Part shown: positions 5,367 through 54,202 of the stretch, one piece after another | How positions within the stretch are numbered: position 1 is the stretch's first letter | Layout of the letters: every line of letters begins with the position of its first letter | Assembly: GCA_028286885.1 (NCBI GenBank) | Contig: JAQBQS010000016.1 | Location: 2,809 to 66,808 of the forward strand | Origin: Patescibacteria group bacterium | GTDB taxonomy: Bacteria; Patescibacteriota; Minisyncoccia; Phycocordibacterales; UBA1006 | Direction of reading: 5' to 3' | DNA: 64,000 nt | The notes under the pieces: model-generated | What the model saw: only the letters and a program-made list of their open reading frames with translations | Databases searched by the model: none | Told to the model about the DNA's origin: nothing | Position numbers and translations under genes: made by a program

Positions 5367-5369
5367 TTT

Positions 5370-6334: not shown

Positions 6335-6361
6335 AAATATGAGTATGCTATAGTAACGAAT

Positions 6362-7710: not shown

Positions 7711-7773
7711 GATGAAACATAAAATCCTCCATATGGAGGATTTTATGCGTGTTTGTGAATCGCAAAAAGGAAA

Positions 7774-8046
7774 CTATTTGACTGCGTCCTTCAAAGCCTT
7801 TGCGGCTCGGAACTTTGGAACGGTTGTCGCTGCAACCTGGACTGTCTCGCCCGTCTTCGGGTTTCGAGCTGTTCGTGCTGCGCGCGCTTTCGCTGAGAAG
7901 ATTCCGAGTCCGGCGAGCGAGACTTCACCTCCTTTTTTCAAAGTTGATGTGATCTCGTCGATAAACATCTGGACAACTTCCTCGGCCTGGACCTTGGTTC
8001 CGCCGATTTTCGCGTGGATCAAATCGGCAAGTGCTGCTTTGTTCAT
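7774..8046 (-). CDS. hup: DNA-binding protein HU
   Basis: MNKAAL...GLGIF...ARTARNPKTGE...PKFRAAKALKDAV. Confidence 0.95.
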   Translation of the reverse strand: MNKAALADLIHAKIGGTKVQAEEVVQMFIDEITSTLKKGGEVSLAGLGIFSAKARAARTARNPKTGETVQVAATTVPKFRAAKALKDAVK

Positions 8047-8259
8047 GTTCATAGGAACGTGTGCGTCCGTCCCGCCCGTCGGCGGTTCGGACAAAATGAT
8101 TAGGACTTGTAATTAGCTGATCAGCCTTTTGCTTCCAAAAAGCATAATCATTGTAGCATAAGGGTTTTTAGGGACTACTTGACTATAAACTTTATTTATG
8201 ACATGATGTTTTGGAATAAAACCGTTATAATTGAACATTTTAAACTAAAAGACAAGAAT

Positions 8260-8859
8260 ATGGCTATAAGAAATCAAGACAAAACAGTCATTGTAACCTA
8301 CGGGGGAAGCTTGATGAAGGACTATTCGCTCATCAGCGAACGGTGTGAATCAGTTTGTGATGCGGTAGAGCAGAGTGAAACCGATAAAACATACATTATT
8401 TTGGCAGCAGGATTTAATCCCAAGGAAAAAACCAATAAGCCGTTCAAAGAGTTAATGGCGGAAGACATTGAGATTATGCTCGAAGGAAAAAGATATGAGC
8501 GTATCGCCGACGGTATGTCAGCTGATTTAGTCAAAGGAGAGCATCTCGTCAAAATTATGCCGACAGCGGGAAACCATTGGGGGACACTCAAACAGACGGA
8601 GGCGATGCTGCATGAAATAGGCCTTCTGAAAGATGTCAAAACAATTCATGTTGTCATCACCGAGGAAAACATTCCTCAGCTGAAATTTATCTGGCGGCTT
8701 TTTTACAAAGGCGATGCCAAGCTTGAATTCTCCGGCAAGCCGCGCGGCGGAAGAAGCCATTACTACAGGTACGTGCTGGAAAATTTGCGCAAGGTGAGAG
8801 CGCTCCTCTACTGGTTCTTCAAAAAGGATCTGGAGCGAACGCTTGATATCGATGAATGA
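8260..8859 (+). CDS. Hypothetical protein
   Basis: 199-aa ORF with upstream promoter-like sequence and downstream hairpin. Confidence 0.6.
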   Translation: MAIRNQDKTVIVTYGGSLMKDYSLISERCESVCDAVEQSETDKTYIILAAGFNPKEKTNKPFKELMAEDIEIMLEGKRYERIADGMSADLVKGEHLVKIMPTAGNHWGTLKQTEAMLHEIGLLKDVKTIHVVITEENIPQLKFIWRLFYKGDAKLEFSGKPRGGRSHYYRYVLENLRKVRALLYWFFKKDLERTLDIDE

Positions 8860-8980
8860 TTTTAAACACAATATCCGCACATTGCTGTGCGGATTTTTTA
8901 TTTAAAAAACTTCTAAGCCACCACACCAAATTTCCTTTCCTTAAAAAGGAAATTTGGTGTGGTGGCAAGAAAAAAGCAGC

Positions 8981-9316
8981 TTAGGCTGCTTGGGGTTCGA
9001 GAAAGAGAGGTTCGAGTTCCTTGATCACTCCGCAGAAGAATTTGATTTCCGCCTTCGGAACGTCCGAAACGAATTCGGGATAGCGATTCTTGAATACCTC
9101 GTGGTTTTTCCAGAGAATGGTAATTTTGCCGTAGATGAGGTCGATGTTTTTCGGCGGAATACGTTCTTTGTGCAAGGAGACCAAAGTCTCGATTGTTTTG
9201 ATCCGTTCGCAGAAGCCCAGGTGAATAGGATGCGATCCTGATTTCGAATACGACTCCATTTTCTGGGGCAAGTTTGCGAATACGGCTGTTACAGCAATGA
9301 TATAGTCTTGATTCAT
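8981..9316 (-). CDS. Hypothetical protein
   Basis: ORF from MNQDYII; the longer called ORF overlaps the next gene. Confidence 0.5.
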   Translation of the reverse strand: MNQDYIIAVTAVFANLPQKMESYSKSGSHPIHLGFCERIKTIETLVSLHKERIPPKNIDLIYGKITILWKNHEVFKNRYPEFVSDVPKAEIKFFCGVIKELEPLFLEPQAA

Positions 9317-9392
9317 AACAGTATTATTTTGTCTTATGAGCGTACTATTCTGCTTTATTTTTGTAAAGCAAAACGCCCCCGGCGTCCTGGTC

Positions 9393-10169
9393 TTATTGCG
9401 CCTGATTCCATGCGATATCAAACAGCATGCGCATGAACATGGCGATGGATCTGTTGGTAATAATGACTGAATGAAGCCCTTTGTCCCAAACAGTAAGCGC
9501 GACATGGTCCGTCCAAACGGACATTTGCAAGTTGGAATTGAAAATCGCCTTGGGGAGGGCGCGCACTTCGCGGAATTTGATGCGCGCTTCGAGGCGTTCG
9601 TCATCAATATCTGGAAATTCAGGCAAGAGAAGTTTTGTTTTGATTTTCCGTTTGATACGAAGCTCGCGATACTCCTTGAGCCTGTCGCGCGCAACCGTAA
9701 ACCGCTCGGGGTCTCCCGACATGCGCAGTACCTCGCCGCCTTTTTCCTGATCAAGGGATTTCATGAAAACCTTAACAAATCCGTCCTCTCCTTCCAAATG
9801 CTCGATGTCGATCTTTTCGGATTCGCCGCGCAATGCAAACAGGCTGCGCAGTTCCGGCATGACGAGTTCGAGCTCGGACACCTTTTTTCTCGTTTCGAGT
9901 TCCTCATGCTCGAGGAACTTCCGTATCTTTTCAGGATTTTCGACATAGAACACGCGGCGTTTGCCGGAAGCTGTTACGCCAAGAACGCCGCGTTCAACAA
10001 GGCTTTCAACAGCAAGGTGAATAGTCGAGCGGGGGAGTTTTACGCCGCCTGCAATCGCGGCAATGCTCGAGATTCCATTTTGGAACAAGAAAAATACTGC
10101 CTGAATTTGAGCCGAGTCCATGCCGATATTCTTGAGTGACGACTTCAATTGTTTCGGTATTTCGATCAT
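9393..10169 (-). CDS. TrmB-family transcriptional regulator
   Basis: N-terminal wHTH (IAGGVKLPRSTIHLAVESLVERG) plus sensor-like C domain; paralog of 34730-35485. Confidence 0.8.
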   Translation of the reverse strand: MIEIPKQLKSSLKNIGMDSAQIQAVFFLFQNGISSIAAIAGGVKLPRSTIHLAVESLVERGVLGVTASGKRRVFYVENPEKIRKFLEHEELETRKKVSELELVMPELRSLFALRGESEKIDIEHLEGEDGFVKVFMKSLDQEKGGEVLRMSGDPERFTVARDRLKEYRELRIKRKIKTKLLLPEFPDIDDERLEARIKFREVRALPKAIFNSNLQMSVWTDHVALTVWDKGLHSVIITNRSIAMFMRMLFDIAWNQAQ

Positions 10170-10294
10170 GAAACAAGATTATCACAAGTAGTTTGAAATG
10201 ACAAATTTTTATGACACTTTGTACAAAAAACTATAAAAACCAATGAAATTGCCATTTTTACAGAAATAGGTATCAAAATTACTTGTCAAAACTA

Positions 10295-10323
10295 TTGACT
10301 TTTGTTTGCGCGCGTGATACAAT
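10295..10323 (+). promoter_or_regulatory. Sigma70-type promoter with extended -10
   Basis: TTGACT-17 nt-TACAAT preceded by TG. Confidence 0.55.
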
Positions 10324-11011
10324 GCTTGCAGGAAGATAAGAAATAATTCTTCGAGTTCTTTCAAATCCGCGAGATTGCATCCCATTCTCGAAAGGACCGT
10401 TCCCGATATCATAACGTTTGGTGGTATTTGGAACAGTCCTTTCGAGGAAATATTAATAAGCGGCAGCGACTATCTGCCAGGGTCCCCGTGCTGAAGCGAT
10501 TTGACTTCAGGGCGGGGGTAATAACTTGGAGATCCCCATCCAGGAATCAGACACTTAACGTAAGTTCCTCTGACCAACCAATCTGGCGGGCAAAAAACCA
10601 TTCTGCGGGAACAGAATGCCAACTCTATAGACAAGGTTACAACCCCTACGTTAAATGAGTTAAAGTTTTTATGTACAGAGCCGCGTTTCTCGGCTCGTCC
10701 TTCCTTCATGTTCCTAACCGGGCGCAGGGACATGAGGGGCGTGATTAGGTCACGCAAGAAGGGAAGATCTTTGCATTGCATTTGCAAAGGAAGAAAATGC
10801 GCGTAATAGGGAGAGGTCTGGCAAAGGGGGCCTAGAGGGTCATCCTGAGGACCGGACACCTCTCCCTTTCTATCAGGATCTCGAAGAAATTCGAGGTTCT
10901 GTAGAAATTATTCTTTCAAAAAATATAAAGATGTGCGCATGTAAAAGTCACGAGAATAAGAATGTGAAAATTGAAAAATTTACAATTATTCATCATTCAA
11001 AAACTTTTATT

Positions 11012-11305
11012 ATGCAAAACATGTTAGTTGTTACAGCCGCGGTGGGCAGCTTTTTTTACGAGGGACATGATGATCCGAAGACATTTTTCCTAAGCGTAAA
11101 ACCTGGTGATTCTTCGGAAGAGCTTGTTTCTACGGTAGTGGAAAAGTTGTATCGAGTTTTTCGCCCAGAGGATCTTTCCTTCGGGAATGGCTTCGTTGGG
11201 ATAATCCACGACCTCGATCCCCAGGGCGGCCTGATTCGAGAAATCGAACAGAAGTTTAAAGAGCGTTTGGGTAGGGACGAGATCACCGTTCAGGTGAATG
11301 GGTAA
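11012..11305 (+). CDS. Hypothetical protein
   Basis: 97-aa ORF between hairpin repeats. Confidence 0.55.
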   Translation: MQNMLVVTAAVGSFFYEGHDDPKTFFLSVKPGDSSEELVSTVVEKLYRVFRPEDLSFGNGFVGIIHDLDPQGGLIREIEQKFKERLGRDEITVQVNG

Positions 11306-11476
11306 TACCAAGTATTGGCGAGAGTTTCTCGCCATTTTTATCAGAGTCTTGAATTTAATTCGAGGTTCTGCAGAAAGCACATTCAAACAAAATATAAATA
11401 TACGTGCTGTTGTATCCATGCAAAATTATCTATTCAAAGAGTTGGAATAGAAAAAAACAAAACAAAATTTTGCAAG

Positions 11477-11989
11477 ATGGAAAAAACAGTATCACGACGT
11501 TGTTCGCTTAGGTATTGCAATTCCTCGGTAGTGAGCTCACTTCAAGTGATCCACTACGGTGCCAGCAGGTTTGAGTTTTCAAAGTTTAATCCCATTGCGA
11601 ACCACTTCGGTACGTATGGAATTAAACCGAGAAGCGGCGGTCTTTGGACCTCGCCGGTTAACTCAAATCATTCCTGGAGAGGTTTCTGCGAAGGTGAAGA
11701 TTTCAATCTTCATACCTTGAGTTCGTCTTTTCGCCTCTCGTTTCATGGTTGCGCCAAAATCGCAATCATTGACTCGTACGGGGACTTGGAGAACCTTCCG
11801 ATGAGGAGTTTTCCAAAGTCGATGGCTGAAACCGATGTCGATTGGGAGCTTGTTGCTCGCAATGCAGACGCGGTTTGGCTTACGGCGAAAGGCGAGACGA
11901 GGACGAGGCTTTCGGCCCCGTACTTGTTGAACGGATGGGACTGCGAAACAGTTCTCATCATGAATCCGAATTGCTTCTACCTCGTGTAG
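11477..11989 (+). CDS. Hypothetical protein (possibly phage-associated family)
   Basis: KPRSGGLWTSP...DWE...DAVWLT...GWDCETVL conserved-looking motifs. Confidence 0.6.
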   Translation: MEKTVSRRCSLRYCNSSVVSSLQVIHYGASRFEFSKFNPIANHFGTYGIKPRSGGLWTSPVNSNHSWRGFCEGEDFNLHTLSSSFRLSFHGCAKIAIIDSYGDLENLPMRSFPKSMAETDVDWELVARNADAVWLTAKGETRTRLSAPYLLNGWDCETVLIMNPNCFYLV

Positions 11990-12094
11990 AGCAGTTTGTA
12001 TTCATAGGACAAGGAAACTTGTCCTCTTTATCAGGATCTTGAACACGTTCGAGGTTCTGTAGGGAATATTTGATCACCTAAAAATAAATAACGT

Positions 12095-12301
12095 ATGATA
12101 GCTGATATTTTTGACGAACTGCTTGCAAAAATTACTCCCCAGGAAAGTTGGACGGTAAAAAAGTGGTTTATGCACCGCTACGGAGAAAAAGGCTGCATCA
12201 GGAGAACTAAGACGAGACGCATATCTCTCTTTCGTCCGAACGGCCCGAAGGCGAGGAAGAGAAAGTACCCGCAAGGCCATCATCCGGAAGATATCTTTTA
12301 G
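12095..12301 (+). CDS. Small basic hypothetical protein
   Basis: 68-aa ORF after the third hairpin, followed by a terminator. Confidence 0.4.
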   Translation: MIADIFDELLAKITPQESWTVKKWFMHRYGEKGCIRRTKTRRISLFRPNGPKARKRKYPQGHHPEDIF

Positions 12302-12346
12302 TTTAAGTAAACATACGCAAAGAGCGGTCTCTAAAGACCGCTCTTT

Positions 12347-13879
12347 TTATCTCGCATATTCAATCACTCTATTCTCCCGAATCACCGTTACCTTGATTTC
12401 TCCTGGATAGCGGAGCTCCTGTTCGATGCGGATCGCCATGTTGCGAGCCGTTTCGCGCGCCTGCATGTCGGTTAGGACATCGGGGCTTACGAAGACGCGG
12501 ATTTCGCGGCCGGCTTGGAGGGCGAATGATTTCTCGACGCCTGCAAACGTGTTGACGACTGATTCGAGTTCGCGCAAACGCTTCAAGTAATTCTCGAGCG
12601 TATCGCGGCGCGCGCCCGGGCGTGCGCCTGAAATCTGGTCGCAGACCTGGACGATGACGGCCTCGACGGTTTCGTGCGGCCAGTCATCGTGGTGCGATTT
12701 CATGGCGGTGATGACGCGCGGATCAACGCCGAACTTTTCCAAGATGCGGATGCCGATTTCGATATGCGTCCCTTCAACTTCATGATCCAAAGCTTTCCCG
12801 ATGTCATGGACGAGTCCGGCAATCTTGGCGACCACGGGATCAGCTCCGAGTTCTGTTGCGAGCATCTCGGCCAAATGGGCAACCTCGAGCGAGTGCTGCA
12901 GAACATTTTGTCCGTATGACGTTCGATATTTCAATCGTCCCAAGATGGCGATGACGCGCGGATCCAAGGTATAGATTCCGCATTCGTGAACGGCATCTTC
13001 GCCCGCCTTCTTGACCATCTCATTGATTTCGGATTTTGCCTTCTCGAAGAATTCTTCGATTTTTGCAGGTTGGATGCGTCCGTCCTTGATTAGGTTTTCC
13101 AAGGTTACGCGCGCAACCTGGCGGCGGATCGGATCAAATGAGGAGATAATGATTTCATCAGGCGACTCATCAATAATGAGCTCGACGCCGGTGATTCGCT
13201 CGAACGTTCGGATGTTGCGGCCTTCGCGTCCGATGATTTTTCCTTTGACATCGTCTGATTCGATTTCGACTGACGTTGTCGTCATCTCGTGAGCGGTTGA
13301 ACTCGCGAGGCGCTGGATGGAATTTACCAAGATTTCACGCGCGCGGGATTTGTATTTTTCCTCGCCTGTGATTTCAAGTTTTCGGAGCCTTACCAAGATG
13401 TCCTCCGAGTATTTCGCCTCGGCATCTGCAACGAGAAGATCGCGCGCCTCTTCTCGGGTCATGCCGGCGAGCTTGATGAAATCGGATTCCTGCTTTGCCA
13501 AGTTCTCCGTCGCCTTTTCCTTCAGGATCTGAACCTCGGCAACTTTCTTTTTCAGGTCTTCGTATTCGCGGTCGACATCTGATTGGCGGGCATCGAGCGT
13601 CTTTTCCTTGTTCACCAAAAAGTCGCGCGTTTTCTTGAACTCGGTTTCATGGTCTCGTTCGATGTGGCGGAGCTCGTCGGTTCGCGATAGGGCGCGGCGT
13701 TCAGCATCTTCGACAATGCGCGTCGCGTCTTCGCGTGCGCGGAGCATCAATTCTTTGACGTTGGTCTCGAGGCTTCGCTTCTGGAATCGTGCGACGATTT
13801 TGCGGATGAAGTATCCGAGAAACCCGCCGATGACAAGCGCCGCAAAACATGCGGCAAGGGCAATAATATAGTGGCTCAT
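12347..13879 (-). CDS. rny: Ribonuclease Y
   Basis: N-terminal TM, coiled coil, KH (KGKIIGREGRNIR), HD (HDIGKA), GARPGARR, IKVTVIRE. Confidence 0.97.
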   Translation of the reverse strand: MSHYIIALAACFAALVIGGFLGYFIRKIVARFQKRSLETNVKELMLRAREDATRIVEDAERRALSRTDELRHIERDHETEFKKTRDFLVNKEKTLDARQSDVDREYEDLKKKVAEVQILKEKATENLAKQESDFIKLAGMTREEARDLLVADAEAKYSEDILVRLRKLEITGEEKYKSRAREILVNSIQRLASSTAHEMTTTSVEIESDDVKGKIIGREGRNIRTFERITGVELIIDESPDEIIISSFDPIRRQVARVTLENLIKDGRIQPAKIEEFFEKAKSEINEMVKKAGEDAVHECGIYTLDPRVIAILGRLKYRTSYGQNVLQHSLEVAHLAEMLATELGADPVVAKIAGLVHDIGKALDHEVEGTHIEIGIRILEKFGVDPRVITAMKSHHDDWPHETVEAVIVQVCDQISGARPGARRDTLENYLKRLRELESVVNTFAGVEKSFALQAGREIRVFVSPDVLTDMQARETARNMAIRIEQELRYPGEIKVTVIRENRVIEYAR

Positions 13880-14075
13880 AAAAATTCAAGGTCGCGCTAA
13901 GAAGTAAAAATCAAAAATAAACCAGAGAGGGAAGAAGTGCTGAATAAAAACAAAATAAGAATTTCCCTATGTTTAAAGTATCAGGAAAAACGCACTTTGT
14001 AAAGAAACTTGACGCCTGCTTGAAAGGATGATACGTTCATTCATGATAAAACTCTTTAAACCAAAATAACTAACC

Positions 14076-41206: not shown

Positions 41207-42283
41207 ATGGCAGATTTTGAAGAAATTAAAAAAGCTATAGAAGAGAAAAGATTTGTTCCAGCAAAGCCTAAGGAAAGACCAAATGAAAAAGAAGTAGAGA
41301 TCATCAAAAGTCTTGATGAGGCAAAAAAGTTAAGAACAACAAAAAAAGCTGACGGCAACGGATATGTTTTCGTAAACGGAAACAGACCTGCCGAGATCGA
41401 ACTCTATACGCTTGGCATGAATCCATCGGGCAATAAATATCCCAGTATTATCAAAGATTTGGGCTCCCTCGTATTTCCTCCTCAAACGATCATTTGCGGA
41501 GAGATAGCATTTGAGGTCGATGGGAAGCAGAGGCGCTCCGAAATAGGGAGGATCAACAGCTCTGGGTTAAAAAATGCGTTGAGGCTTCAGGAGTCCAAGG
41601 AAATCATTCCCGAGCTTTTCCTATTCAATCCATTAATGTGGAACGGCAAAGACATTACTAACTGGTCGTATGACGACCGTTTCGAATGCCTTGCCGAACA
41701 TCTTGCGAAGAAACGTTTTGATTACGTCAAACTGATCGAACTTTTAAAATGCTCATTGGCTGATGCCCGCGCAATGGCAAAAGAAAAAGAATGGGAAGGC
41801 CTTGTTTTGGCCGATGCAGAATCCATGACCGGTTTTTCTATCAAGGAAACAGCGGATGAGGATGCACCAATTCCGCGGACGAAAGGCCTTTGGAAAGACA
41901 AAGAAGGATTACTTCTTGATTTCGTCGCGTATGACGTTAGGTTCAGTACTGCAAAATCTCGCCTCGGTGCAATAAAGGATTTCAAAATCGGCATCATCGA
42001 TCCGTTTACGAAAGAGATCATTCCTTGCGGGAATTGCGGAAAGCTTCGAGTGTCGGATGCCTTTGCATATGCTGATCCGAAAAAGCTACCTGTAGCCGTC
42101 GAGGTTAGATTTGAGATGTGGTCACATAACGGTGTCCCGCTCACTGCAAGCGTCGAACGCATTCGCGAACCAAAAGACAAGCATTACACACAGTGCTTTG
42201 CGTCAGAAGAAGACATGGCGGAAATTCTTTTCAAGAATACAAGAAAGAGAATCCCTCTCTCATCGATCAAACCGAAAAAGTAA
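41207..42283 (+). CDS. ATP-dependent DNA ligase-like protein
   Basis: KADG (motif I), CGEI (III), LFLFN (IIIa), WEGLVL (IV), LWKDK (V), OB-fold tail with ERIR..DK. Confidence 0.7.
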   Translation: MADFEEIKKAIEEKRFVPAKPKERPNEKEVEIIKSLDEAKKLRTTKKADGNGYVFVNGNRPAEIELYTLGMNPSGNKYPSIIKDLGSLVFPPQTIICGEIAFEVDGKQRRSEIGRINSSGLKNALRLQESKEIIPELFLFNPLMWNGKDITNWSYDDRFECLAEHLAKKRFDYVKLIELLKCSLADARAMAKEKEWEGLVLADAESMTGFSIKETADEDAPIPRTKGLWKDKEGLLLDFVAYDVRFSTAKSRLGAIKDFKIGIIDPFTKEIIPCGNCGKLRVSDAFAYADPKKLPVAVEVRFEMWSHNGVPLTASVERIREPKDKHYTQCFASEEDMAEILFKNTRKRIPLSSIKPKK

Positions 42284-43471: not shown

Positions 43472-44794
43472 ATGAAGACAAAAGTCCTCGTTATTGGTGC
43501 CGACGGGCGCGCAGACGCGCTGGCACGCCAAGCAAGCCTTGGAATCCATTTTTCACATCTGTACGCATTGCCCGGCAATCCGGGAACCAAGCGATGGGCG
43601 ACAACCATCAGCGGTTCGATAACTGATTTCGTAGCCATCGAAAAGGAATGCCTCAAGCACGGCATCACGACGATCGTAGTCGGTCCGGAAGATCCGCTTG
43701 TAAAAGGCATCTCGGAGTATTTTGCAGCCAGCCAATCGTCTGCCCATATCAAAATCGTGGGACCATCTGCCAAGAATGCAAAGATCGAAGGCAGCAAGGC
43801 GCATGCGAAACAATTTATGGATCGCCACGGCATACCGACAGCGCCTTTCCAGATTTTCAAGGAAGACCAGCTGGAACTGGCCAAGCTGTACATCGAACAG
43901 CTGACTGTATTTCCTACTGTCATCAAGGCCGACGGCCTGGCTGCAGGAAAGGGAGTCCTCATCTGTCATACGCCCGAAGAAGCGCTTGCGGCAGTAGAAG
44001 GCATGCTCTCCGGTGCCAAGTTCGGCGATGCGGGAAAGACGATCGTCGTCGAGGAATTCCTTCCGGGAAAAGAAAGCTCGTTCATCGTCATCACTGACGG
44101 AACGGGCGCGTGGAAACTTCTGCCTTTGGCACGCGATTACAAACGCGCGGGCGTTGGCGACACAGGTCTCAACACAGGCGGCATGGGTGTCATCTCGACG
44201 CCGTCTCTCGTGACGGAATCATTCAAGCAGATTGTCACTGAACGCGTCATCGAGCCTACGATCCAAGGATTTATCGCCGATGGAACTCCCTACAAAGGAT
44301 TCCTTTACATTCAGCTCATGGAAGTAGAGGGACAACCGTTTGTTGTCGAGTACAACTGCCGCCTGGGAGATCCTGAAACGGAAGGCATCCTGCCTCTGAT
44401 CAAGAGCGACTTCAGCGAACTTCTCGCGGCGTGCGCAAACGGAACTCTCAAGTATACGAACCTGGAATTCCATGAAGAATGTTCGGCTGTGATCGCGATT
44501 GTTTCAGGAGGCTATCCCGGGGACTTCGAGAAAGACAAGAAGATCATGATTAATAAGTATGCGATCGGCCGCATCGGATGCAACATTTTCTTCGCAGGCG
44601 CGAAAGAGGAACATGGCGAACTTGTTACAAGCGGCGGCAGGGTTCTGTATCTGCAGGCCAATGCCCCTACTCTCAAGGAAGCGTTGAACCGCTGCTATGA
44701 AGCTGCCAAGCATGTCTTCTTCGACAATATGTACTTCCGTACCGACATCGGCGCCGAGGTGCTTGCGCTTGAAGCGATCGGACAGGAAGCATAA
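43472..44794 (+). CDS. purD: Phosphoribosylamine--glycine ligase
   Basis: PGNPG, VGPEDPL, EGSK..AK, IKADGLAAGKGV, NTGGMG, EYNCRLGDPET, SGGRV. Confidence 0.95.
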   Translation: MKTKVLVIGADGRADALARQASLGIHFSHLYALPGNPGTKRWATTISGSITDFVAIEKECLKHGITTIVVGPEDPLVKGISEYFAASQSSAHIKIVGPSAKNAKIEGSKAHAKQFMDRHGIPTAPFQIFKEDQLELAKLYIEQLTVFPTVIKADGLAAGKGVLICHTPEEALAAVEGMLSGAKFGDAGKTIVVEEFLPGKESSFIVITDGTGAWKLLPLARDYKRAGVGDTGLNTGGMGVISTPSLVTESFKQIVTERVIEPTIQGFIADGTPYKGFLYIQLMEVEGQPFVVEYNCRLGDPETEGILPLIKSDFSELLAACANGTLKYTNLEFHEECSAVIAIVSGGYPGDFEKDKKIMINKYAIGRIGCNIFFAGAKEEHGELVTSGGRVLYLQANAPTLKEALNRCYEAAKHVFFDNMYFRTDIGAEVLALEAIGQEA

Positions 44795-44894: not shown

Positions 44895-47501
44895 ATGAAT
44901 CTCAATCCTAAAAACTGGTTCGAACTCCAGCAGAAGCGCAAGGCGGTGCGGGCGGACTTGGCCAAGGAAACCGGCATGCGATCCTCCGAGGCTCTCGACA
45001 AAAGCGCGGAAGCCGACGGCATGAACGACCTTCTCGGTGCAATTGCGAGCGGAAACCTCGCGAATGTTTCGCTCGACACCGGAGCCGTCGACGGCGTCGC
45101 AAAATCGGAATATGTCAGGCATCTGCAGGAAACGCTGCGGCAATTGAACGAGGAAGCCGAGAAGTTCGGCCCGGTGACCGAAGAGTCGGTCGAAACCTAC
45201 CGCCAGCAGTCAGGCGAGCATTACGCCTATAAGAAAGTGAACCAGGAACTGCTGAAGCTCGACACTCTGCGCGAGGAGACGGACCGCGCGATTTTCGAAA
45301 TTTTGAAAAACGGCAAGGGCGAAGGCTTTACGCGCATGGACGAAGCGAAGCTCGCCGAGTACGAGAAGATCAAGGGCGCGATCACGAACCGGACGGCGTC
45401 GCTCGAACAGAATCCGGAAACGGCGCTGTTCGTGCGCATGCACACGCTCGACTCGTACCACGATCAGCTCGTCAAGGAAAACTACATCGAGACGCCGTCG
45501 CGAACGGAATACATCGACTGGATCAAGGACCAGATGAAGAACCACCGCGCGGTGCTTCTTGAAGGCGCGACGGGAACCGGAAAAACGGAGCTTCTGATCC
45601 ATACGTCAAAGTCGCTTCTCGGCAAGAACAATCCCGAGATATTGGCCGGAAATCCGCACGTTACGAAATACGATCTCTTGGGAAGCCAGGGATTGGAATC
45701 CGACGAGCATGGAACGAAAACCGTCGACAAGCCTGGATGCCTGCCGCGAGCGATGAAGGACGGCAACCTGCTGATCCTCGACGAGATGAACCAGATCGAA
45801 ACCAAGGTCCGATTCGCGCTCAAGCCGTTTTACCGCTACTCGGGAGTCCGCGGCGGCGAGGTTTCCGTCGAAGGCGTGAACTATCCGGTCAACGACGGAT
45901 TCCTGATCGCGGCTACCGCGAACCTCAAGAGCGAAAAGCACAAGGACCGCTTCGACCTGGACGCGGCCGAGTCGCGCGTATTCGCGATGAAGCGCATCGA
46001 GTACCCTCCGCAAAACGAGCTGTACGACATGGCGCTCGCGGCGCTCCGCAGGAACGACGGAACGTACCTCGTCTCCGAAGGTTCGGCGAAATCGACGCTG
46101 AAGTATCTGGTGGACGCGGCGCGCGACATTCAGGAAGGCTACGAGAAAGCGCTGTCCGCGGGATTTGACCCGTCATCCGGAAAGAAGACGTCGCTTGAAA
46201 AAGCGGTGCTCGATCCCGGCGAATTCATGGCAATGGTCAAGTCGTACACGGCATCCTACGCGTCCGGAAAAACATTCGAGGACCACATCGACGCGCGATT
46301 GGCCGATTTCGTCGCCAAAGGATCGTACCCGGAAAAAGACCGCGTGCTTCTCGCGAAAATTCTGACGTCGAAGGGATTCCTCTTGAAAAACTTTGATCCC
46401 GAAATGCTCCATTTGACGGACGACACGCTGCGAGATTCCCTTGCCCAGTGGCCGATGCCGGCGCAAGACACCCTTGTCCGCGAGCGCGGCACGATGACGG
46501 AACGCGAAGCGGCGATGCTCGATCCGTACGAACTGCGCAAGGAAATGATCGCGAAAACGACCGACAGCTTCGTCGGTATGATTCCCGAGGAAGAAAAGCA
46601 GATGATCCTCAACGCGGCGGAGCGCGGCATCAATTATCTCGAAGCCAAGGAAGCGATCGGGAAAGAAAATTTCCTCGGTCCCGACGAGATCAAGTTCCGA
46701 TTCTCGATCGACGTCAAGAACGCTCCGAAGGTTCCGTTTTCAAAACAGGAACTCATGGACGCGAAAAAGCTCGGCCAGCAGCTGGTTCTGTACGTCGACA
46801 AGACGAAAGACGGCAAGCCCCTGACGATTTCCGCCATGCGCGAGCAGACGAAAAACAAGACGAGCCAGGCAACCGGACTCTTCGCGGACGGCGACGATTA
46901 TTTCAAGAACAACGGGCTTGATCAGGAAACGCCGCGCGTCGGCTGGCGCCTGACTTCCAAGGAGTGCCTGCCGAATTCGGAAAACAAGAACTATTTCGGA
47001 CAGACGCAGGTTGCCGTCGATTACTTGAAAAACGAAGTCTTCAAGGGAACTAAAATTCCCAAGGAATACGCCGAAGCGTTCGACGAATGGGAAGCGGTCA
47101 AGAAAACGAATCTCAAGGAGCAGTCCGAATCGGGCGACAGCGCGAAATGGATGGCCGCGTCGCAGCAGCTCGCGAATCTCAAGATTACGCAGCTGACCCG
47201 CGAGCGATTGTCCGAAGTCATGTACCGCCTCGCGATTCAGGAATCGAAAAACAAAGAGCGTTTGCTCGATTCCGCGGGCCGCACGGTCTACTATACGTGG
47301 ACGAGCTCCCGTGGTTCCGATGGCGACTTGGCTCTCGCCGGCCGCTTCGATTCCGACGGCGTGGATGTGTGCGCGGGTGGGAGCCGAGGGATTCCGGCTC
47401 GCGCATCGGGGTTTGTCTCTCTCGCAGTTGAATTTAGGATATCAGGAATTTTTGAATCATGCGGAACAAACCGCCCGGATAGGGCGGTTTGTGGCGAATG
47501 A
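44895..47501 (+). CDS. DGR target: MoxR/dynein-related AAA+ ATPase with C-terminal variable (CLec-like) domain
   Basis: Walker A GATGTGKTE, Walker B LLILDEMN, sensor IAATAN; VR at 3' end. The TR-colinear stop is at 47429-47431; the current frame reads on to 47501 because of a 2-bp insertion. Confidence 0.88.
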   Translation: MNLNPKNWFELQQKRKAVRADLAKETGMRSSEALDKSAEADGMNDLLGAIASGNLANVSLDTGAVDGVAKSEYVRHLQETLRQLNEEAEKFGPVTEESVETYRQQSGEHYAYKKVNQELLKLDTLREETDRAIFEILKNGKGEGFTRMDEAKLAEYEKIKGAITNRTASLEQNPETALFVRMHTLDSYHDQLVKENYIETPSRTEYIDWIKDQMKNHRAVLLEGATGTGKTELLIHTSKSLLGKNNPEILAGNPHVTKYDLLGSQGLESDEHGTKTVDKPGCLPRAMKDGNLLILDEMNQIETKVRFALKPFYRYSGVRGGEVSVEGVNYPVNDGFLIAATANLKSEKHKDRFDLDAAESRVFAMKRIEYPPQNELYDMALAALRRNDGTYLVSEGSAKSTLKYLVDAARDIQEGYEKALSAGFDPSSGKKTSLEKAVLDPGEFMAMVKSYTASYASGKTFEDHIDARLADFVAKGSYPEKDRVLLAKILTSKGFLLKNFDPEMLHLTDDTLRDSLAQWPMPAQDTLVRERGTMTEREAAMLDPYELRKEMIAKTTDSFVGMIPEEEKQMILNAAERGINYLEAKEAIGKENFLGPDEIKFRFSIDVKNAPKVPFSKQELMDAKKLGQQLVLYVDKTKDGKPLTISAMREQTKNKTSQATGLFADGDDYFKNNGLDQETPRVGWRLTSKECLPNSENKNYFGQTQVAVDYLKNEVFKGTKIPKEYAEAFDEWEAVKKTNLKEQSESGDSAKWMAASQQLANLKITQLTRERLSEVMYRLAIQESKNKERLLDSAGRTVYYTWTSSRGSDGDLALAGRFDSDGVDVCAGGSRGIPARASGFVSLAVEFRISGIFESCGTNRPDRAVCGE
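47301..47428 (+). repeat. DGR variable region (VR)
   Basis: Matches TR except 15 substitutions, all at TR adenines, plus a 2-nt insertion. Confidence 0.95.
47466..47492 (+). promoter_or_regulatory. Post-VR hairpin/cruciform (putative retrohoming target-recognition element)
   Basis: ACAAACCGCCC-GGATA-GGGCGGTTTGT, perfect 11-bp stem ~35 nt after VR. Confidence 0.75.
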
Positions 47502-47692
47502 AAGTGTGCTAGAATGATCCGCACCGGGAATGCGAAGGCATCAATGATGCCTTTCCCCGAAACATACATTACTGCTTGCCTTCCTCTTCGCGCGAGTATT
47601 TCGACAGCCGCGGCGCGCGCGAAAAAATGACATCCTCGACCTTCTTATGATAATTAAGAACGAAGAAGAACTGACCCGGACGGGGGAAGGCA

Positions 47693-47818
47693 ACAAGCTC
47701 CCGTGATTCCGATGGCAACTTGGCTCTCGCCGGCAACTTCGATTCCGACGGCGTGAATGTGAACAGGTGGAAGCCGAGGAATTCCGACTCGAACATCGGG
47801 GTTTGTCTCTCTCGAAGT
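47693..47818 (+). ncRNA. DGR template repeat (TR)
   Basis: AAC/AAT-rich invariant copy of VR in intergenic DNA upstream of avd/RT. Confidence 0.93.
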
Positions 47819-47851
47819 GATAACATGTCAAACGAAAACGGAGCGGGCCCT

Positions 47852-48184
47852 TCAGGGCCGCGCTCCGTTTTCACTCTCTATTTTTTTAATCCAACCGCCG
47901 ATGATTTTTCCAAGTTCCGCCAAGTGTTCCGAGAGGATCACATGCGCCCGGTCGGGAAGGCATTTCGCGTCGTTTGCGATGCGCAGCCGAAGCTGGATGC
48001 TTTTGAGTTCGACGTCGATTTTATTAACCAGCAACAACTGGCTTGCACCCTTCTTGGACCGCGCGAGCATTCCCATCTCGAGCGCTTCGAAGGCCTTGGG
48101 GATGATCGGAAGTCCGAGGGCGTACCGGTCGAATTTTGGCATTTTGCCTACATACATATGCAACGCGACAATGAACTTGCACAT
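47852..48184 (-). CDS. avd: Avd-like accessory variability determinant (four-helix bundle)
   Basis: MPKFDRYALG...LRLRIA...LAELGKIIGGWIK motifs; last ~110 aa of the 910-aa antisense ORF; start may be TTG 48211 or further up. Confidence 0.82.
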   Translation of the reverse strand: MCKFIVALHMYVGKMPKFDRYALGLPIIPKAFEALEMGMLARSKKGASQLLLVNKIDVELKSIQLRLRIANDAKCLPDRAHVILSEHLAELGKIIGGWIKKIESENGARP

Positions 48185-48229
48185 TTTGGCCGCGAAAGCG
48201 CTCGACGCCAAAATTCGGGGGGGGGGGGG

Positions 48230-49279
48230 GTGATTCAGGACACCTATTCTAACATCATCTCGCTCAAAAACTTGTTCACCGCGTGGAAGGAATTTATCAT
48301 CGGCAAGAAAAATAAAGCGGACGTTCTTGAATTCGGCACGATGTACGAGCAGGAATTGATCGCGCTCCACGCTTCGCTCGATCTCGGACGGTATTCGCAC
48401 GGCGGCTACCACGCGTTCATGGTCTGCGATCCGAAGCGCAGATCGATCAACAAGGCCCGGGTGCGCGACCGCGTTTTGCATCACGCGATCCACAGGCTTC
48501 TCGTTCCGATATTCGAGCCCGGGTTCATTTTCGATTCCTATTCGTCGAGAAAAGCCAAAGGCGTCCATGCGGCGCGCGAGCGATTCCGCGAATTCGCGCG
48601 CGTGCTGTCGCGGAACAATACGAAAACAGTCTGGGTTCTCAAATGCGACATCAGGAAATTTTTCGATTCGGTCGACCATGCGGTTCTTATGGGCCTTCTC
48701 GCGCGCAGGCTGAAGTGCCCGCGGACGCTCGCGCTTCTCGGCAATATCATCCGAAGCTACGACTCCGGCGCGGGGAAGGGAATACCGCTCGGCAACCTGA
48801 CAAGCCAGCTGTTTTCGAACGTCTACATGGATCCGTTCGACCAGTTCATGAAAAGGATCGTCCGCGCGAAATGCTATATAAGGTACGCGGACGATTTCGT
48901 GATCCTTTCCCGCGACCGCGACTATTTGGCACGCCTGATTCCGACGATCAACGCCTTCCTGGACAAAGACCTCAAGCTCCGGATGCATCCGAACAAAGTC
49001 GAGATCAAGAAATGGCATTCCGGAATCGATTTTCTGGGGGCGACGATGTTCCCGCATTTTCGCGTTCTGCGCACCAAGACCAAAAGGCGCGCGTTCAGAA
49101 AAATCAGGAAGAACATTATTTTTTACAAGAACGGACTCATCCAATACGAGGATCTTGTTTCGATCATCCGTTCGTATCTGGGAATCATGCAGCACGTGGA
49201 CTCGTTCGGCGTCAGGCGAGACCTCTTGTCGATGATCAGGAGCATGGGATCCGCAGGTGTGGAATTCTCGAAATTGTGA
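48230..49279 (+). CDS. DGR reverse transcriptase
   Basis: DPKRRSI, RDRVLHHAI, SYSSRKAKGVH, LKCDIRKFFDSVDH, GIPLGNLTSQLFSNVYM, YIRYADDF, IDFLG; start GTG 48230 (alternative in-frame ATG 48158). Confidence 0.95.
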   Translation: MIQDTYSNIISLKNLFTAWKEFIIGKKNKADVLEFGTMYEQELIALHASLDLGRYSHGGYHAFMVCDPKRRSINKARVRDRVLHHAIHRLLVPIFEPGFIFDSYSSRKAKGVHAARERFREFARVLSRNNTKTVWVLKCDIRKFFDSVDHAVLMGLLARRLKCPRTLALLGNIIRSYDSGAGKGIPLGNLTSQLFSNVYMDPFDQFMKRIVRAKCYIRYADDFVILSRDRDYLARLIPTINAFLDKDLKLRMHPNKVEIKKWHSGIDFLGATMFPHFRVLRTKTKRRAFRKIRKNIIFYKNGLIQYEDLVSIIRSYLGIMQHVDSFGVRRDLLSMIRSMGSAGVEFSKL

Positions 49280-49291
49280 TAGTCTTGGCAC

Positions 49292-51319
49292 ATGAAAGGC
49301 CCCGTTTTCAAGATCGAACAACAAGACGCCGGCGATAAAAACGCGAAGCAAGAAGGCAAAGCCGCCCGGGTATTTGAGACCCATAAGGACTTTTTCGCCA
49401 ATTACACGAAACACGGCAACTTGGAAATCAAGCCCGCAACCGACGCGGGACTTGAAACGTCGGCGATCGATTTGTCGGATCCGAAGCGTCCGAAAATATT
49501 CCTCCACGACGATTTTCTCGAGGAAAAAAGCGGCGGAAGCGACATCGCGGGACTGTGGGCCGCGTCGCACGAGTGCGAGCATCTCGTGGAACTTTTGGGG
49601 CTCTTGAACGAAAAGGACGGGCCGGGAATCTGGCGCGACCGGCAGGCGGCGATCGATGCCGATCCGAGCTTGCACATTCTGGACAATTGCCTGGACGACG
49701 TGAAAATGAACCGAAGCGTCGTTGCGAAGGCTCCGGTCACGCGCGGCAGCTTCCATGAAATTTACGACAAGAAGCTTTTTGCGGACACGGATTTTACCAA
49801 GATCCCGAAACATCTGCAGTTTGCGTACGCGTTGCTGAACGAAGACCCGATCAACGGAGGGCGCGCGTGCACCGTTTCGCCCGACGTGCGCCAGGAAATT
49901 ACGCGCCTCCGGGCCGTTCAAAACGGGCAAAAGCAAAATTTGTTCAACTTCATGACCAATCCCGATGTCGGAATGAAGGACCGCCTGAAGCTGCAGGAAA
50001 TGTTTTTCGAGCCGGTCTATAAAAAATTCAAGCGGGACGACGACAAGAATTGGGAGCCGCCCAAAGACGGCGACAAGAAAGAAGGCGAGGGAAGCCCCGA
50101 TCAGAATCAAGGACAGCAAGGCGAAGGGCAGGATCAAGAAGGCGGCCAGCCTCCAAAGTCCCAAGACCAAAAACCTTCCGGCGACGGAAAAGGCAAGCCG
50201 GAGAAAAAAGAAGGTCCGTCCGAAAACGGCGATCCGAAAGATTCCGAATCCGAACCCGGAGACGGCAAGAAAACGGATGAAAAATACAAGGAGCTCTACG
50301 ACAAGTTCAACGAGGCGATGAAGCAGGCCGTCCCGAAAGATCTCGAGGAAAAAGCCGTCGAGGAATTCATCGACAACAAATCCGATCGGAAAAGCTACGA
50401 GGAGCAATCGCTCGAAGCGTACGCGCTCGCCGAAGGCGTGACGGTCGAAGATTTGAAAGGCTATCGCCGCTACATCGACCGCGTCGAGGAATTGCGCAAT
50501 CCCGAGACCGACGAACTGCTGATCGAGGAAATCCGCAACATTTTCCGCCGCATCATCGCCGAGCGCACCGCAAAGCTGCCGCAATCTAAAATGCCGCAGA
50601 GCGAAGGCGTCACGATCCGGTTTCCCGCCCAGGCCGTCGTCCAGACCAAAGCCGGAAATCCCGAACCCGAAGTCTGGCAGACGATCGAAGAGAAGGAGGC
50701 GGTCAAGGAATTGATCGGCAAGTTCGACGTGACGCTGGTGTGCGACCGGTCCCGCTCCATGGGTTCAGGCGGAAAACTGGAAGCCCAGCGGACGACGTCG
50801 GCTCTGGTTTTGGAAGCTTTGCGCGAGTTCGGCACGGACCTCGAGGACGCGGCGGCGGATTTGGAATCGAATCTCGAAATCAGGACGGAAGTTTGGTCGT
50901 TCGGCGACGACGCGCAGTGCGAACTTTTGAAAGCACTGTCTCCGACGCTCTCCGAAAAAGAACGGGTGCTCGTCTATCAGAAGCTGTCGCAGGTGCCCGG
51001 AAACTCGACCAAGGATTACCAGACCCTCGAAAAGCTGCTGAAGAGTTTGGACCCGAAAGATCTGGACGCGATCGCCGAGAAGAAGCTGCGCAAAATCGTC
51101 TTTGTCGTTTCCGACGGCGAGAGCAGCGACGTCGCCGCAACGAAACGGATTCTCGCGAAGCTTCGCGAAAAAGGAATTCTCGTCTACGGAATCGGCGTCA
51201 CGAACGAAGCGCGATCGATCGAGACGACCTATGCGCCCTCCGGCCGCGTCTGTCCCGACCAGAACCAGCTCCCGGTTGTCATGGGCGAACTCTTGAAAGA
51301 GCAGCTGGAGACCGTCTGA
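49292..51319 (+). CDS. HExxH + acidic linker + vWA domain protein (MoxR partner type)
   Basis: ASHECEHL and NCLDDVKMN in N-domain; D/E/G/Q/K-rich linker; MIDAS DRSRSM, ST.D, VSDGE. Confidence 0.8.
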   Translation: MKGPVFKIEQQDAGDKNAKQEGKAARVFETHKDFFANYTKHGNLEIKPATDAGLETSAIDLSDPKRPKIFLHDDFLEEKSGGSDIAGLWAASHECEHLVELLGLLNEKDGPGIWRDRQAAIDADPSLHILDNCLDDVKMNRSVVAKAPVTRGSFHEIYDKKLFADTDFTKIPKHLQFAYALLNEDPINGGRACTVSPDVRQEITRLRAVQNGQKQNLFNFMTNPDVGMKDRLKLQEMFFEPVYKKFKRDDDKNWEPPKDGDKKEGEGSPDQNQGQQGEGQDQEGGQPPKSQDQKPSGDGKGKPEKKEGPSENGDPKDSESEPGDGKKTDEKYKELYDKFNEAMKQAVPKDLEEKAVEEFIDNKSDRKSYEEQSLEAYALAEGVTVEDLKGYRRYIDRVEELRNPETDELLIEEIRNIFRRIIAERTAKLPQSKMPQSEGVTIRFPAQAVVQTKAGNPEPEVWQTIEEKEAVKELIGKFDVTLVCDRSRSMGSGGKLEAQRTTSALVLEALREFGTDLEDAAADLESNLEIRTEVWSFGDDAQCELLKALSPTLSEKERVLVYQKLSQVPGNSTKDYQTLEKLLKSLDPKDLDAIAEKKLRKIVFVVSDGESSDVAATKRILAKLREKGILVYGIGVTNEARSIETTYAPSGRVCPDQNQLPVVMGELLKEQLETV

Positions 51320-51521
51320 TTTCTTGGGTAAGGGATGCGGATAAAATAAGCAAGAATAAAAGCCTTTCGATTGGATCGAAAGGCTTTTTTGTTGAGGCTC
51401 TGCTTCCTCGAGGCTCACCGTTTAGTATTTATTTGTCAAGTACTCTTGATTAAGCCTTTAATTGCAAAGGAATGCTCCCCATGGTACTGTTTGCAAAATC
51501 ATTCACTCTTAAAACAACATA

Positions 51522-52577: not shown

Positions 52578-54110
52578 TTATTCAAATTCAGTGGTAGCAG
52601 GGGGCTTGGGAGTGTAATCCCAGAACACCCTGTTGACCAGCGTATGCTTGGTAATCTCGTTCGTGATTCTCTCCATCACGTGCGGCGCCAGATACATGGG
52701 CTTGACCGTCATGAAGTCCGACGTGGTGATCGGACGAACGATGATGGAATAGGCGAGCGATCTCGCGTCTCCTTTGACTCCCGTTGTCTTGGTTCCGTCG
52801 AGCGCGACAACCAGCTGCGATATCTCATCGTAGCAGTTCTCATCTTTGAGGATCGCGGTGACGATCTTGTCAGCCCATTGGACCGTCTTGATCAGGTTTC
52901 GCGTTGCCGGTATGCCAAGAATGCGCAGATACAGTCCCGGTCCCGGAAAGGGTTTCCGTTCCGCGATCATCGCGTCAAGGTTGAGGCTGCGCGCGATGGC
53001 GCGGATCTCATGCTTGAAGAGATGAGACAGCGGTTCGACCTTCGGTATCGAGAAGTCCACGATGTTGTGGTGCGACTTGATCAAGGCGGATTTTCCTTTC
53101 TTTCCCGACTCGATCAAATCCGTTGCGAGCGTTCCCTGGATCATGTGGGTGATCCGGTATTTTGAAATGATCCGTTCGAATGTCTCGCGATAGGCCTTCA
53201 TGAATCGCTTGCGCTTTTCTTCGGGATCGGTCGCCTTGCCGATGGTTTTAAGAAACCGGCTGCTTGCCTTGACGACATTGATCGGGATCCCCGCCCGCGC
53301 CATGGTGGCTTGGACTTCTTCGATCTCGCCTTCTCTCATCCCGCCGTGATCAATGATGAACGAGACGAGGTTGTCGCCCATGATAGGCGCCAAGATGGCG
53401 GCGAGCGTCGTGGAATCAACTCCTCCGCTTAAGCCGAGGAGTGCGCGACCGCCGCCGACCTCTGTCAGAACGTGGTTTCTTATTTCATCGATCGCGTTTT
53501 CGGAATTCCAGTCAGGGACGCATTTTGCAATACCTGCGAAATTTTTCAGGATCGAGTTGTCATCGTCGGTTTGGATAACCTCGGGATGAAACTGGAGCGC
53601 GATAATTTTTCCGAGAGGTGAAATGATTCCCTCGATGACTTTTCCTCCGTCCGTTCCTGATGATGCGATTTCTTCGAATCCGTTTGGAAGATTTGCAACG
53701 ATGTCGCCGTGGCTTGTCCACGCGTTCAAATGCGTTTGGAGATCTGCAAAAATCCGTTCTTCGTTGTTGATGCGGATTTTCATCGGGCCGTAGCCTTTCT
53801 GATCCGTATTTCCTTTTTGCACCGATGAAGAATCTAAAAGGTGTGCAATGAGCTGCATGCCGTAGCAGATGCCGAGGACGTAGTAGTCGCCGTTTAAAAG
53901 TTCTACGGGAATGGTCGGCGCATTCTCGTCGTAGACGCTCGCGTTTCCTCCGGAGAGGATGAGCGCTTTCGGAGAATTTTCTGCCAGGCATTCTTTCAGT
54001 TTTTCAGGGCTTGTGATAACCGATCTGAATCCGAGAAGCGCAAGAGTCCTTGCGATGATGGTCGTGTACTGCGAGCCGAAATCGATAATGACGAATTGTG
54101 GTTTATTCAT
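52578..54110 (-). CDS. guaA: GMP synthase (glutamine-hydrolysing)
   Basis: DFGSQYT, GICYGMQ, QFHPEV, SGGVDS, IKSHHN, PFPGPGL, KPPATTEFE. Confidence 0.96.
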   Translation of the reverse strand: MNKPQFVIIDFGSQYTTIIARTLALLGFRSVITSPEKLKECLAENSPKALILSGGNASVYDENAPTIPVELLNGDYYVLGICYGMQLIAHLLDSSSVQKGNTDQKGYGPMKIRINNEERIFADLQTHLNAWTSHGDIVANLPNGFEEIASSGTDGGKVIEGIISPLGKIIALQFHPEVIQTDDDNSILKNFAGIAKCVPDWNSENAIDEIRNHVLTEVGGGRALLGLSGGVDSTTLAAILAPIMGDNLVSFIIDHGGMREGEIEEVQATMARAGIPINVVKASSRFLKTIGKATDPEEKRKRFMKAYRETFERIISKYRITHMIQGTLATDLIESGKKGKSALIKSHHNIVDFSIPKVEPLSHLFKHEIRAIARSLNLDAMIAERKPFPGPGLYLRILGIPATRNLIKTVQWADKIVTAILKDENCYDEISQLVVALDGTKTTGVKGDARSLAYSIIVRPITTSDFMTVKPMYLAPHVMERITNEITKHTLVNRVFWDYTPKPPATTEFE

Positions 54111-54202
54111 GTTGTTAATGTTTGTTTGCGCGAGCGTATCATTGTTTTGGAACAGTGTCAATTAATTAAAATGCGGATCCGTAATTATGGTATTCTTCTA
54201 TC

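Follow-up and report, generated by a model that had tools for sequence, protein, structure and literature searches.

A diversity-generating retroelement on an AAA+ ATPase linked to an HExxH-vWA partner in a Patescibacteria genome

The 64,000 nucleotides analyzed here (the window) are positions 2,809 to 66,808, forward strand, of contig JAQBQS010000016.1 from assembly GCA_028286885.1 of a Patescibacteria group bacterium, belonging to the candidate phyla radiation, or CPR; the source genome comprises 846 kb and is 93% complete. The window contains a diversity-generating retroelement (DGR) that targets an AAA+ ATPase, together with a gene for a protein that joins an HExxH domain to a vWA domain. 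The order is ATPase target, template repeat (TR), avd (antisense), reverse transcriptase (RT), and HExxH-vWA partner. We are highly confident that these features form a DGR and a module. An earlier note on this DNA, made from the letters alone (the original prediction), is compared with our results where they bear on it.

Organization of the locus

44895..47501, plus strand: DGR target open reading frame (ORF) as assembled, 868 aa, with an N-terminal helical region, AAA_5, a linker, a probable C-type lectin (CLec) domain, and an out-of-frame tail
45462..46394, plus strand: AAA+ core, residues ~190-500, with Walker A 224-231, Walker B 292-297, and sensor-1 Asn343
46617..47372, plus strand: in-frame part of the C-terminal variable domain, residues ~575-826, probable CLec/FGE-type fold
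47301..47428, plus strand: variable region (VR), 128 nt, at the 3' end of the target
47366..47375, plus strand: stretch holding a 2-nt insertion relative to the TR, exact site ambiguous, beside a TR AAC codon
47457..47501, no strand: GC-rich inverted repeat, 11-bp core stem 47466-47492
~47526-47558, no strand: second hairpin, after the VR
47693..47818, plus strand: TR, 126 nt, 27 A, open reading frame
47834..47874, no strand: strong hairpin (z -5.58) in the TR-RT interval, covering the avd stop codon
47852..48238 (end approximate), minus strand: avd, ~128 aa, head to head with the RT
48217..48230, plus strand: 14 consecutive G where avd and RT meet, giving poly-proline at the Avd N-terminus
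48230..49279, plus strand: DGR RT, open frame of ~349 aa, inferred GTG start
49292..51319, plus strand: CobT-like partner (HExxH-vWA), 675 aa, beginning 12 nt after the RT stop (49279)
51358..51388, no strand: hairpin of 14 bp with T-rich tails, directly 3' of the vWA gene

The retroelement and its variable region

When one 2-nt gap is allowed, the TR and VR differ by 15 substitutions, and 15 of 15 fall at TR adenines (chance 1.7e-12). The original prediction had already counted these substitutions correctly; however, it overlooked the 2-nt VR insertion, which frameshifts the target. Across its first 39 codons, the TR could reach ~1e14 protein variants. The RT matches RVT_1 (E 3e-23) and carries YADD at 48884-48895. 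Its best PDB sequence match is 8ub7_A, which we take to be the Bordetella DGR RT, with an E of 1.5e-43; the best group II intron RT reaches 3.7e-20. Avd matches bAvd PF22296 at 52 bits (cut-off 40) and NCBIfam NF033474 at 55 bits, below the cut-off of 80; its start is uncertain, being CTG where two relatives have ATG. Both the RT and the Avd-like gene had been recognized previously, and the strand of the latter is now assigned as minus. A 101-aa minus-strand ORF across the TR has no Pfam match and was rejected as Avd. The GC-rich inverted repeat at 47457-47501 (DNA fold z -6.05, with 0 of 200 shuffled sequences folding as well) occupies the position of a DGR homing hairpin, a role that we infer by analogy with the description in PMC5758913. 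No remote VR of the window TR was found in the genome. Collectively, these data establish the anatomy of the DGR and the adenine-specific nature of its changes.

To compare alleles, we used one public run that contains the stretch and is the probable source sample (run X1), taken as contigs; the stretch was not present in runs X2 and X3. The run X1 contigs carry other bases at 47325 and 47326, with 0 gaps across the insertion, and one of them ends at 47313, just before 47314. Positions 47314, 47325, and 47326 all lie opposite TR adenines. We read this as a second allele of the VR, with the insertion in common, though contigs from one sample could also give a mosaic path. The original prediction had proposed a check for VR variation at TR adenines, and the other bases seen here come from one contig. 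The DGR is real and probably recently active.

The insertion places the target ORF out of the TR frame after about residue 826, and the ORF therefore ends at 47501. The TR frame would stop at 47429-47431 and close with the family motif G-V-x-x-S-R. This pattern is matched by 112 of 150 relatives and is unmatched by the window protein; in the model of an intact homolog, the motif forms the terminal strand. One explanation is that the frameshift is an assembly artefact and that the true target ends at 47431. Sequencing depth is only ~10-14 and the VRs are polymorphic, and VR assembly breaks or N occur in two related sequences, where a contig ends within the VR (G326) or the VR contains a run of N (L050). 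In contrast, the independent run X1 contig spans the insertion site with 0 gaps, and among 372 curated DGRs, 11 have frameshifting VR indels; AAC adjoins 74% of indels, as it does in the window (PMC5758913). We consider an artefact quite unlikely. Since the TR, RT, Avd, and hairpin are intact, later homing could overwrite the allele assembled here. Further VRs with a 1-nt frameshift or a premature stop were observed at L012:6750-6893, L067:2375-2492, L075:8021-8155, and L027:7874-7997 and in protein P0053.

Several side observations concern the retroelement. Runs of at least 9 G occur in 9 of 36 related loci, and the run X1 contigs break exactly at the 14-G run. A change in the length of this run would frameshift avd and could act as an on/off switch of the DGR, or the run could be only a weak spot for sequencing. 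The TR reading frame stays open through antisense avd into the RT (47720-49279, 519 codons), probably by chance in GC-rich DNA. Additionally, the same genome holds a second complete DGR on contig C3 (~4413-8440) with an antisense avd and a 241-aa target without ATPase. Its TR (7333-7455) and VR (7722-7844) have 12 of 13 mismatches at TR A, its RT is 48% identical to the window RT, and it adjoins an ORF resembling a tyrosine integrase, in a low-GC stretch.

The ATPase target

The target matches AAA_5 (MoxR/midasin-type, E 8e-10) and belongs to the AAA_5/H2-insert clade with its catalytic motifs intact, in agreement with the MoxR/dynein-type Walker A and B named in the original prediction; our motif names follow established AAA+ knowledge. 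The Walker A Lys, the Walker B Asp-Glu, and Asn343 are found in 45 of 45 aligned homologs, and Arg361, the probable arginine finger, in 39 of 45. The closest solved relatives are midasin, NorQ, CbbQ, and CobS, and phrog_249 also matches the ATPase. The best 19-residue hydropathy window of the target reaches 1.0, giving no transmembrane (TM) segment, and no TM segment is present in 44 of 45 ATPases or in 44 of 45 partners. Both proteins look cytoplasmic by this measure, as had been proposed for the target.

For the C-terminal domain, 801 relatives are found at E<=0.001. The top 150 are mostly standalone proteins of ~300 aa, and 29 of them carry the profile of the window ATPase. The fold was tested on an intact homolog, P0052 (64% identical over 260 aa), and not on the frameshifted window protein. 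The P0052 model has a pLDDT >93 in the domain. Compared with 48,161 chains, the model is closest to TvpA, the variable protein of a Treponema DGR (Z 9.0, root-mean-square deviation [rmsd] 4.1, 170 aligned), and the next matches are other CLec/FGE folds, including Mtd and TaqVP. A Foldseek search of the P0052 model against the PDB returned no match at E<=0.001. The TvpA and CLec/FGE matches lend moderate support to a CLec fold of the variable domain, for which the original prediction had suggested a fold check.

The HExxH-vWA partner

The partner consists of an HExxH domain (~20-255), a charged, low-complexity, disordered linker (~256-330), a helical finger-like region, and a vWA domain. The HExxH motif lies at 93-97, inside model helix 84-105. 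Residues H93, E94, H97, D131, N132, and D136 are invariant in 45 of 45 aligned partners, as are all five positions of the metal ion-dependent adhesion site (MIDAS). An HExxH helix followed by conserved acidic residues is the arrangement looked for in a zincin-like metallopeptidase. These features, and the start of the gene 12 nt after the RT stop, agree with the HExxH and vWA gene of the original prediction. In structural models, the best fold matches to the C-terminal half of the partner are NorD (Z 19.6, rmsd 5.8, 230 aligned) and midasin's MIDAS domain (Z 19.3, rmsd 3.5, 212 aligned), and both extend over the stretch preceding the vWA core. Whole-chain PDB searches are dominated by the vWA domain. 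Over its length the partner resembles phage CobT-like proteins, which are the top viral fold matches and also the Atlas neighbors of its N-terminal domain. No Pfam peptidase, CobT, or DUF2201 model was found in 45 partners at E<=0.01. Prediction of a complex of two ATPase cores (190-500) with partner residues 325-675 scored 0.01, which is no evidence either way.

Linkage across related loci

The partner alignment was scanned against one genome per species, giving 74 loci. Named partner relatives are mostly Patescibacteria; some records are labelled Gammaproteobacteria, Bdellovibrionales, Eubacteriales, or Woesearchaeota, with labels unconfirmed. A same-strand ATPase relative occurs in 37 of the 74 loci, upstream of the vWA gene in 24 and downstream in 13. 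The placement of the DGR between ATPase and vWA genes, given in the original prediction, describes the window correctly, but it is not a general rule. An RT is present in 43 of 74 loci and avd in 36, antisense in 36 of 36. Among the 20 loci with long flanks (at least 6 kb upstream and at least 3 kb downstream), all 20 have the ATPase and 15 the RT; the 21 loci without ATPase, RT, and avd are all shorter than this limit. TR/VR pairs were detected in 32 of 74 loci (44 pairs), and 681 of 737 mismatches, alignment ends included, are at TR A.

Of 401 genomes sampled evenly across the class, the partner is matched in 15, the ATPase alignment in 13, and both in 11; three regions fetched for this check duplicate loci of the 74-locus set. 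In 10 of the 11 double matches, ATPase and partner lie within ~3 kb on one contig. Six genomes match only one of the two. In G049, a divergent ATPase lies 3 kb off; in G125 and G265, avd-RT-vWA stands where the contig stops; G129 is truncated on one side; and G235 and G421 show no partner in the DNA retrieved around them. A metagenome search that began with the ATPase gave 9 loci, of which 7 proved to be true relatives; the partner was present in 2 of these 7, and the other 5 end too early downstream to tell. Among viral contigs, the partner alignment confirmed 0 of 141 pattern matches. Collectively, the linkage is constant, and the vWA partnership of the original prediction held up in this synteny survey; on sequence grounds, the HExxH-vWA gene is a true partner of the ATPase family.

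Across the loci, 38 ORFs encode a standalone CLec protein whose N-terminus is helical, a count that includes a few duplicate loci. These ORFs often stand beside the vWA gene, and in many loci such extra tip proteins are of the same class as the locus tip. Their N-termini have no BLAST match to vWA proteins and match ATPases only adjoining the CLec domain. In a split form (L076, L084, L085, and L090), the ATPase and the CLec domain each have a gene of their own, and as many as three CLec paralogs are interspersed among the ATPase and vWA genes. No standalone CLec paralog was found in the genome of the window. Three other arrangements were observed. L094, a viral-labelled contig, carries a related vWA-AAA-avd-RT module (6658-13992). 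There and at L107:4646-9989, the partner is ~900 aa long, and only its vWA half matches, the N-terminal part being different. At L056:11859-14207, a family ATPase with an unrelated C-terminal domain stands beside a vWA gene, with no DGR nearby.

Exchange of the variable tip

Before any trees were built, the C-terminal domains were sorted by BLAST, using 32 locus ATPases and 7 database proteins; this gave four multi-member classes and three singletons. The class that was folded is K4, to which the window belongs; the other classes are presumed to be CLec from the position of their VR. Tree distances of ATPase core and vWA protein agree closely (Mantel r 0.92, 32 loci; L050 excluded for unknown residues), as expected from joint descent of the two genes. 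For the 21 loci with an RT, r is 0.88 for ATPase-vWA, 0.21 for ATPase-RT, and 0.35 for vWA-RT.

Changes of variable-domain class over 24 loci number 4 on the RT tree, which is the minimum, versus 6 on the ATPase and vWA trees. Class K1 forms a single clade on the RT tree (support 78), whereas the ATPase data reject a K1 clade (p of the approximately unbiased test [p-AU] 1.4e-10). Conversely, the deep clade in which the ATPase tree places the window is rejected by the RT data (p-AU 0.0006). Between L040 and L068, the ATPase cores are 83.5% identical, whereas the C-terminal domains have no BLAST match. Because the ATPase and vWA trees agree and the RT tree follows the variable-domain class, an exchange of tip, TR, Avd, and RT as a cassette is indicated. 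Collectively, these four parts appear to be swapped as a unit onto a stable CobST/NorQD-like ATPase-vWA motor.

Genomic setting

The module is flanked by purD (43472-44794) and guaA (52578-54161), and its setting is chromosomal genes. Genomes of this type are mostly without nucleotide synthesis, and purD is therefore unusual here. The unit from the end of purD to the terminator after vWA contains no additional gene, and the hairpin at 51358-51388 probably marks the end of the transcription unit. A promoter scan gave 4 sites versus 2.3 +/- 1.6 expected and was not informative. The GC content of the module, 0.557, exceeds that of 238 of 238 genome windows (mean 0.469), and the module is patchy: the vWA protein was not found in 40 of 40 nearest relatives with a single-protein query. 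Since purD was undetected in the 24 relatives searched and the downstream HAD gene was found in 1 of 24, no empty insertion site can be demonstrated. A single-protein scan of the genome contigs gave no match. A prophage was considered and rejected, with 0 phage structural matches (8 proteins tested; Pfam scans of 61 window proteins).

Elsewhere in the window, a protein with an ATP-dependent DNA ligase domain (41207-42283) of lower GC content (0.44) lies three genes upstream of the module. The segment 20966-22922 contains tRNA-Asn, then an AbiV-type HEPN gene, and then a SIR2_2 gene, possibly a small defence island. At 863-2599, a large serine recombinase abuts tRNA-Gly, probably an integration site.

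Comparison with known systems

The original prediction regarded the target class as unusual, which did not stand. The DGR targets of CPR bacteria are reported most often to join a CLec to an AAA ATPase (PMC10907252, citing Paul et al. 2017), and Wu et al. place such targets in class UVR4, category g1, with architecture B3 in 90% of their CPR set (PMC5758913). Similar to the window, these DGRs have the order target-TR-(avd)-RT with antisense avd (PMC5758913) and an AAA/midasin-like ATPase ahead of a C-terminal VR, and the available descriptions include short and long targets together, as in the module family of the window. The likeness to UVR4/g1 is one of gene order, domains, and descriptions. 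In the available supplement of Wu et al., 'vWA' appears at 3 places (two domain descriptions and one in an alignment), and neither a conserved vWA partner nor tip exchange is named there (PMC5758913).

Also relevant to the supposed novelty, DGRs tied to MoxR-vWA systems have been described in multicellular bacteria as MoxR-vWA-VMAP ternary conflict systems (Kaur et al., PMC7159879; Dore et al., PMC10907252). Both these systems and the window combine a MoxR ATPase, a vWA protein, a peptidase domain (putative in the window), and a DGR-diversified CLec in one cytoplasmic system. In the ternary systems as described, CLec is on the vWA protein, and VMAP carries a trypsin- or caspase-like peptidase. 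In contrast, in the window the ATPase carries the CLec and VR, the HExxH domain is joined to the vWA protein, and the bacterium is a member of the CPR; the vWA gene has nothing after its vWA domain and no CLec fused to it.

Furthermore, the ATPases of CobS-CobT, NorQ-NorD, and CbbQ-CbbO are profile kin of the window ATPase, and their partners are likewise composed of an N-terminal domain, a flexible linker, a finger, and vWA. The finger of the vWA protein passes through the pore of the hexameric ATPase in both CobST and NorQD (bioRxiv 10.64898/2026.10.09.757910; PMC13036017). Identity to the window proteins is only 15-21%; no client enzyme (CobN, NOR, or Rubisco) is encoded alongside in the window, and CobS, NorQ, and CbbQ have no lectin tip, unlike the window ATPase. 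Jumbo phages also encode a pair of MoxR ATPase and metallopeptidase-vWA (CobT-like) protein with a proposed role in virion assembly and processing (Iyer et al., PMC7824862). Here too, an HExxH-type domain is fused to vWA beside a MoxR ATPase. However, CLec or DGR is not described for these pairs in the available text of PMC7824862, and the window locus lies among chromosomal genes.

In this comparison, the target class was already known, and the conserved HExxH-vWA partner and the tip exchange are added here. Neither was found in print in the literature searched; Paul et al. 2017, which was outside this search, may mention the partner.

Proposed function

On balance, and with some reserve, we favor a mobile CPR AAA+/vWA motor that uses a DGR-diversified recognition tip on an intracellular client. 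The motor itself is the likelier part of this proposal, and by analogy we regard an AAA+/vWA motor as probable. The module would move horizontally among CPR chromosomes. As in CobST and NorQD, the ATPase would form a hexamer whose pore admits the finger of the partner; the MIDAS of the partner would grip the client, and ATP turnover would twist it. Less firmly, six variable CLec tips together with standalone CLec paralogs may select the client by avidity, and the HExxH domain may cut it. The likeliest client would be a foreign intracellular protein of a phage or mobile element, making the module an adaptive cytoplasmic system that recognizes and then remodels or cleaves. Cytoplasmic defence against phage or mobile-element proteins, akin to the possible role against phage or host proteins raised in the original prediction, ranks first among the roles considered, albeit as a tentative choice based on analogy.

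Several points weigh against this proposal, beginning with the fact that every functional step is drawn by analogy. In PADLOC, no model matches the partner and the ATPase has only weak P-loop matches, and the known defence genes in the window are >20 kb from the module. No third, VMAP-like effector gene was recognized in the locus (judged without a VMAP profile). The sole solved-structure match of the HExxH domain is weak (MJ1213, E 0.013), and we take this protein to be a minimal metallopeptidase. For CobT, the domain at the N-terminus is described as a docking domain (bioRxiv 10.64898/2026.10.09.757910), and the HExxH domain of the partner thus need not be a protease. The Z of the CLec match comes from the model of a homolog and lies near the tool's 'common' level. 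Moreover, because the frameshift removes the terminal CLec strand, the model implies that the allele assembled in the window is probably non-binding. Frameshifts occur in 3 of 44 related TR/VR pairs, and at one locus both VRs contain a stop; such recurrent null VRs suggest weak selection on the tip or assembly error. The second allele is supported by one contig of the probable source sample, not by reads. Finally, the related loci are kin and not independent samples, and G421, which has a divergent ATPase, has no partner in 16 kb, nor does G235 in 12.6 kb.

A bolder version of the defence proposal is a two-tier, adaptive immune-like machine in which cassettes are swapped by recombination and then fine-tuned by the DGR, the grip on new phage or host proteins and their cutting in the cytoplasm can evolve within generations, and null tips are reversible off states; we regard it as unlikely. 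Second among the roles considered, and also unlikely in our view, is a maturation machine, in which the ATPase, vWA, and peptidase parts fold, process, or assemble CLec proteins (the module's own tip or standalone paralogs) for display in host attachment. The 38 standalone CLec ORFs, often flanking the vWA gene, and the separate ATPase and CLec genes of the four split loci would suit such a machine, as would the assembly and processing role proposed for the phage pair (PMC7824862) and the host attachment usually suggested for CPR DGRs (PMC10907252). However, TM segments are missing from 44 of 45 ATPases and partners alike, no pilus or secretion gene is among the genes flanking the window locus, and the window tip is fused to the ATPase in a genome where no standalone paralog was found.

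The module might also act on proteins of the CPR's host cell after contact or delivery, with the DGR tracking host variation. CPR DGRs have been set in the context of an episymbiotic lifestyle and of interaction with a host (PMC10907252), and both the patchiness (15 of 401 genomes) and the tip exchange fit host switching. We nevertheless consider this role very unlikely, as no export signal or delivery system is linked to the module and a hexameric motor with a 675-aa partner would be improbable cargo. Least probable to us is that the DGR is a selfish passenger on an AAA/vWA chaperone of housekeeping type, which gains a CLec tip, TR, avd, and RT but does its work without needing the tip. The swapping of the cassette, the recurrence of null VR alleles, the lack of a full RT in 5 of 20 long-flank loci, and L056, with its unrelated C-terminus and no DGR, speak for a passenger. 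In contrast, loci without an RT mostly retain the CLec tip on the ATPase (L013, L017, L046, L052, and L068), the pair occurs in only ~4% of class genomes, unlike a housekeeping function, and the tip is fused in frame again after swaps.

Implications

With a fixed partner whose HExxH and MIDAS are invariant, the variable protein is no longer an orphan but half of a defined two-protein machine, open to expression, purification, and assay, and the recent structures of CobST and NorQD provide a template for studying the ATPase-partner pair. If tips and retroelements are indeed exchanged on a stable motor, diversification would operate at two levels. In that case, the motor would offer a natural scaffold on which the remodelling or cleavage of proteins could be programmed.

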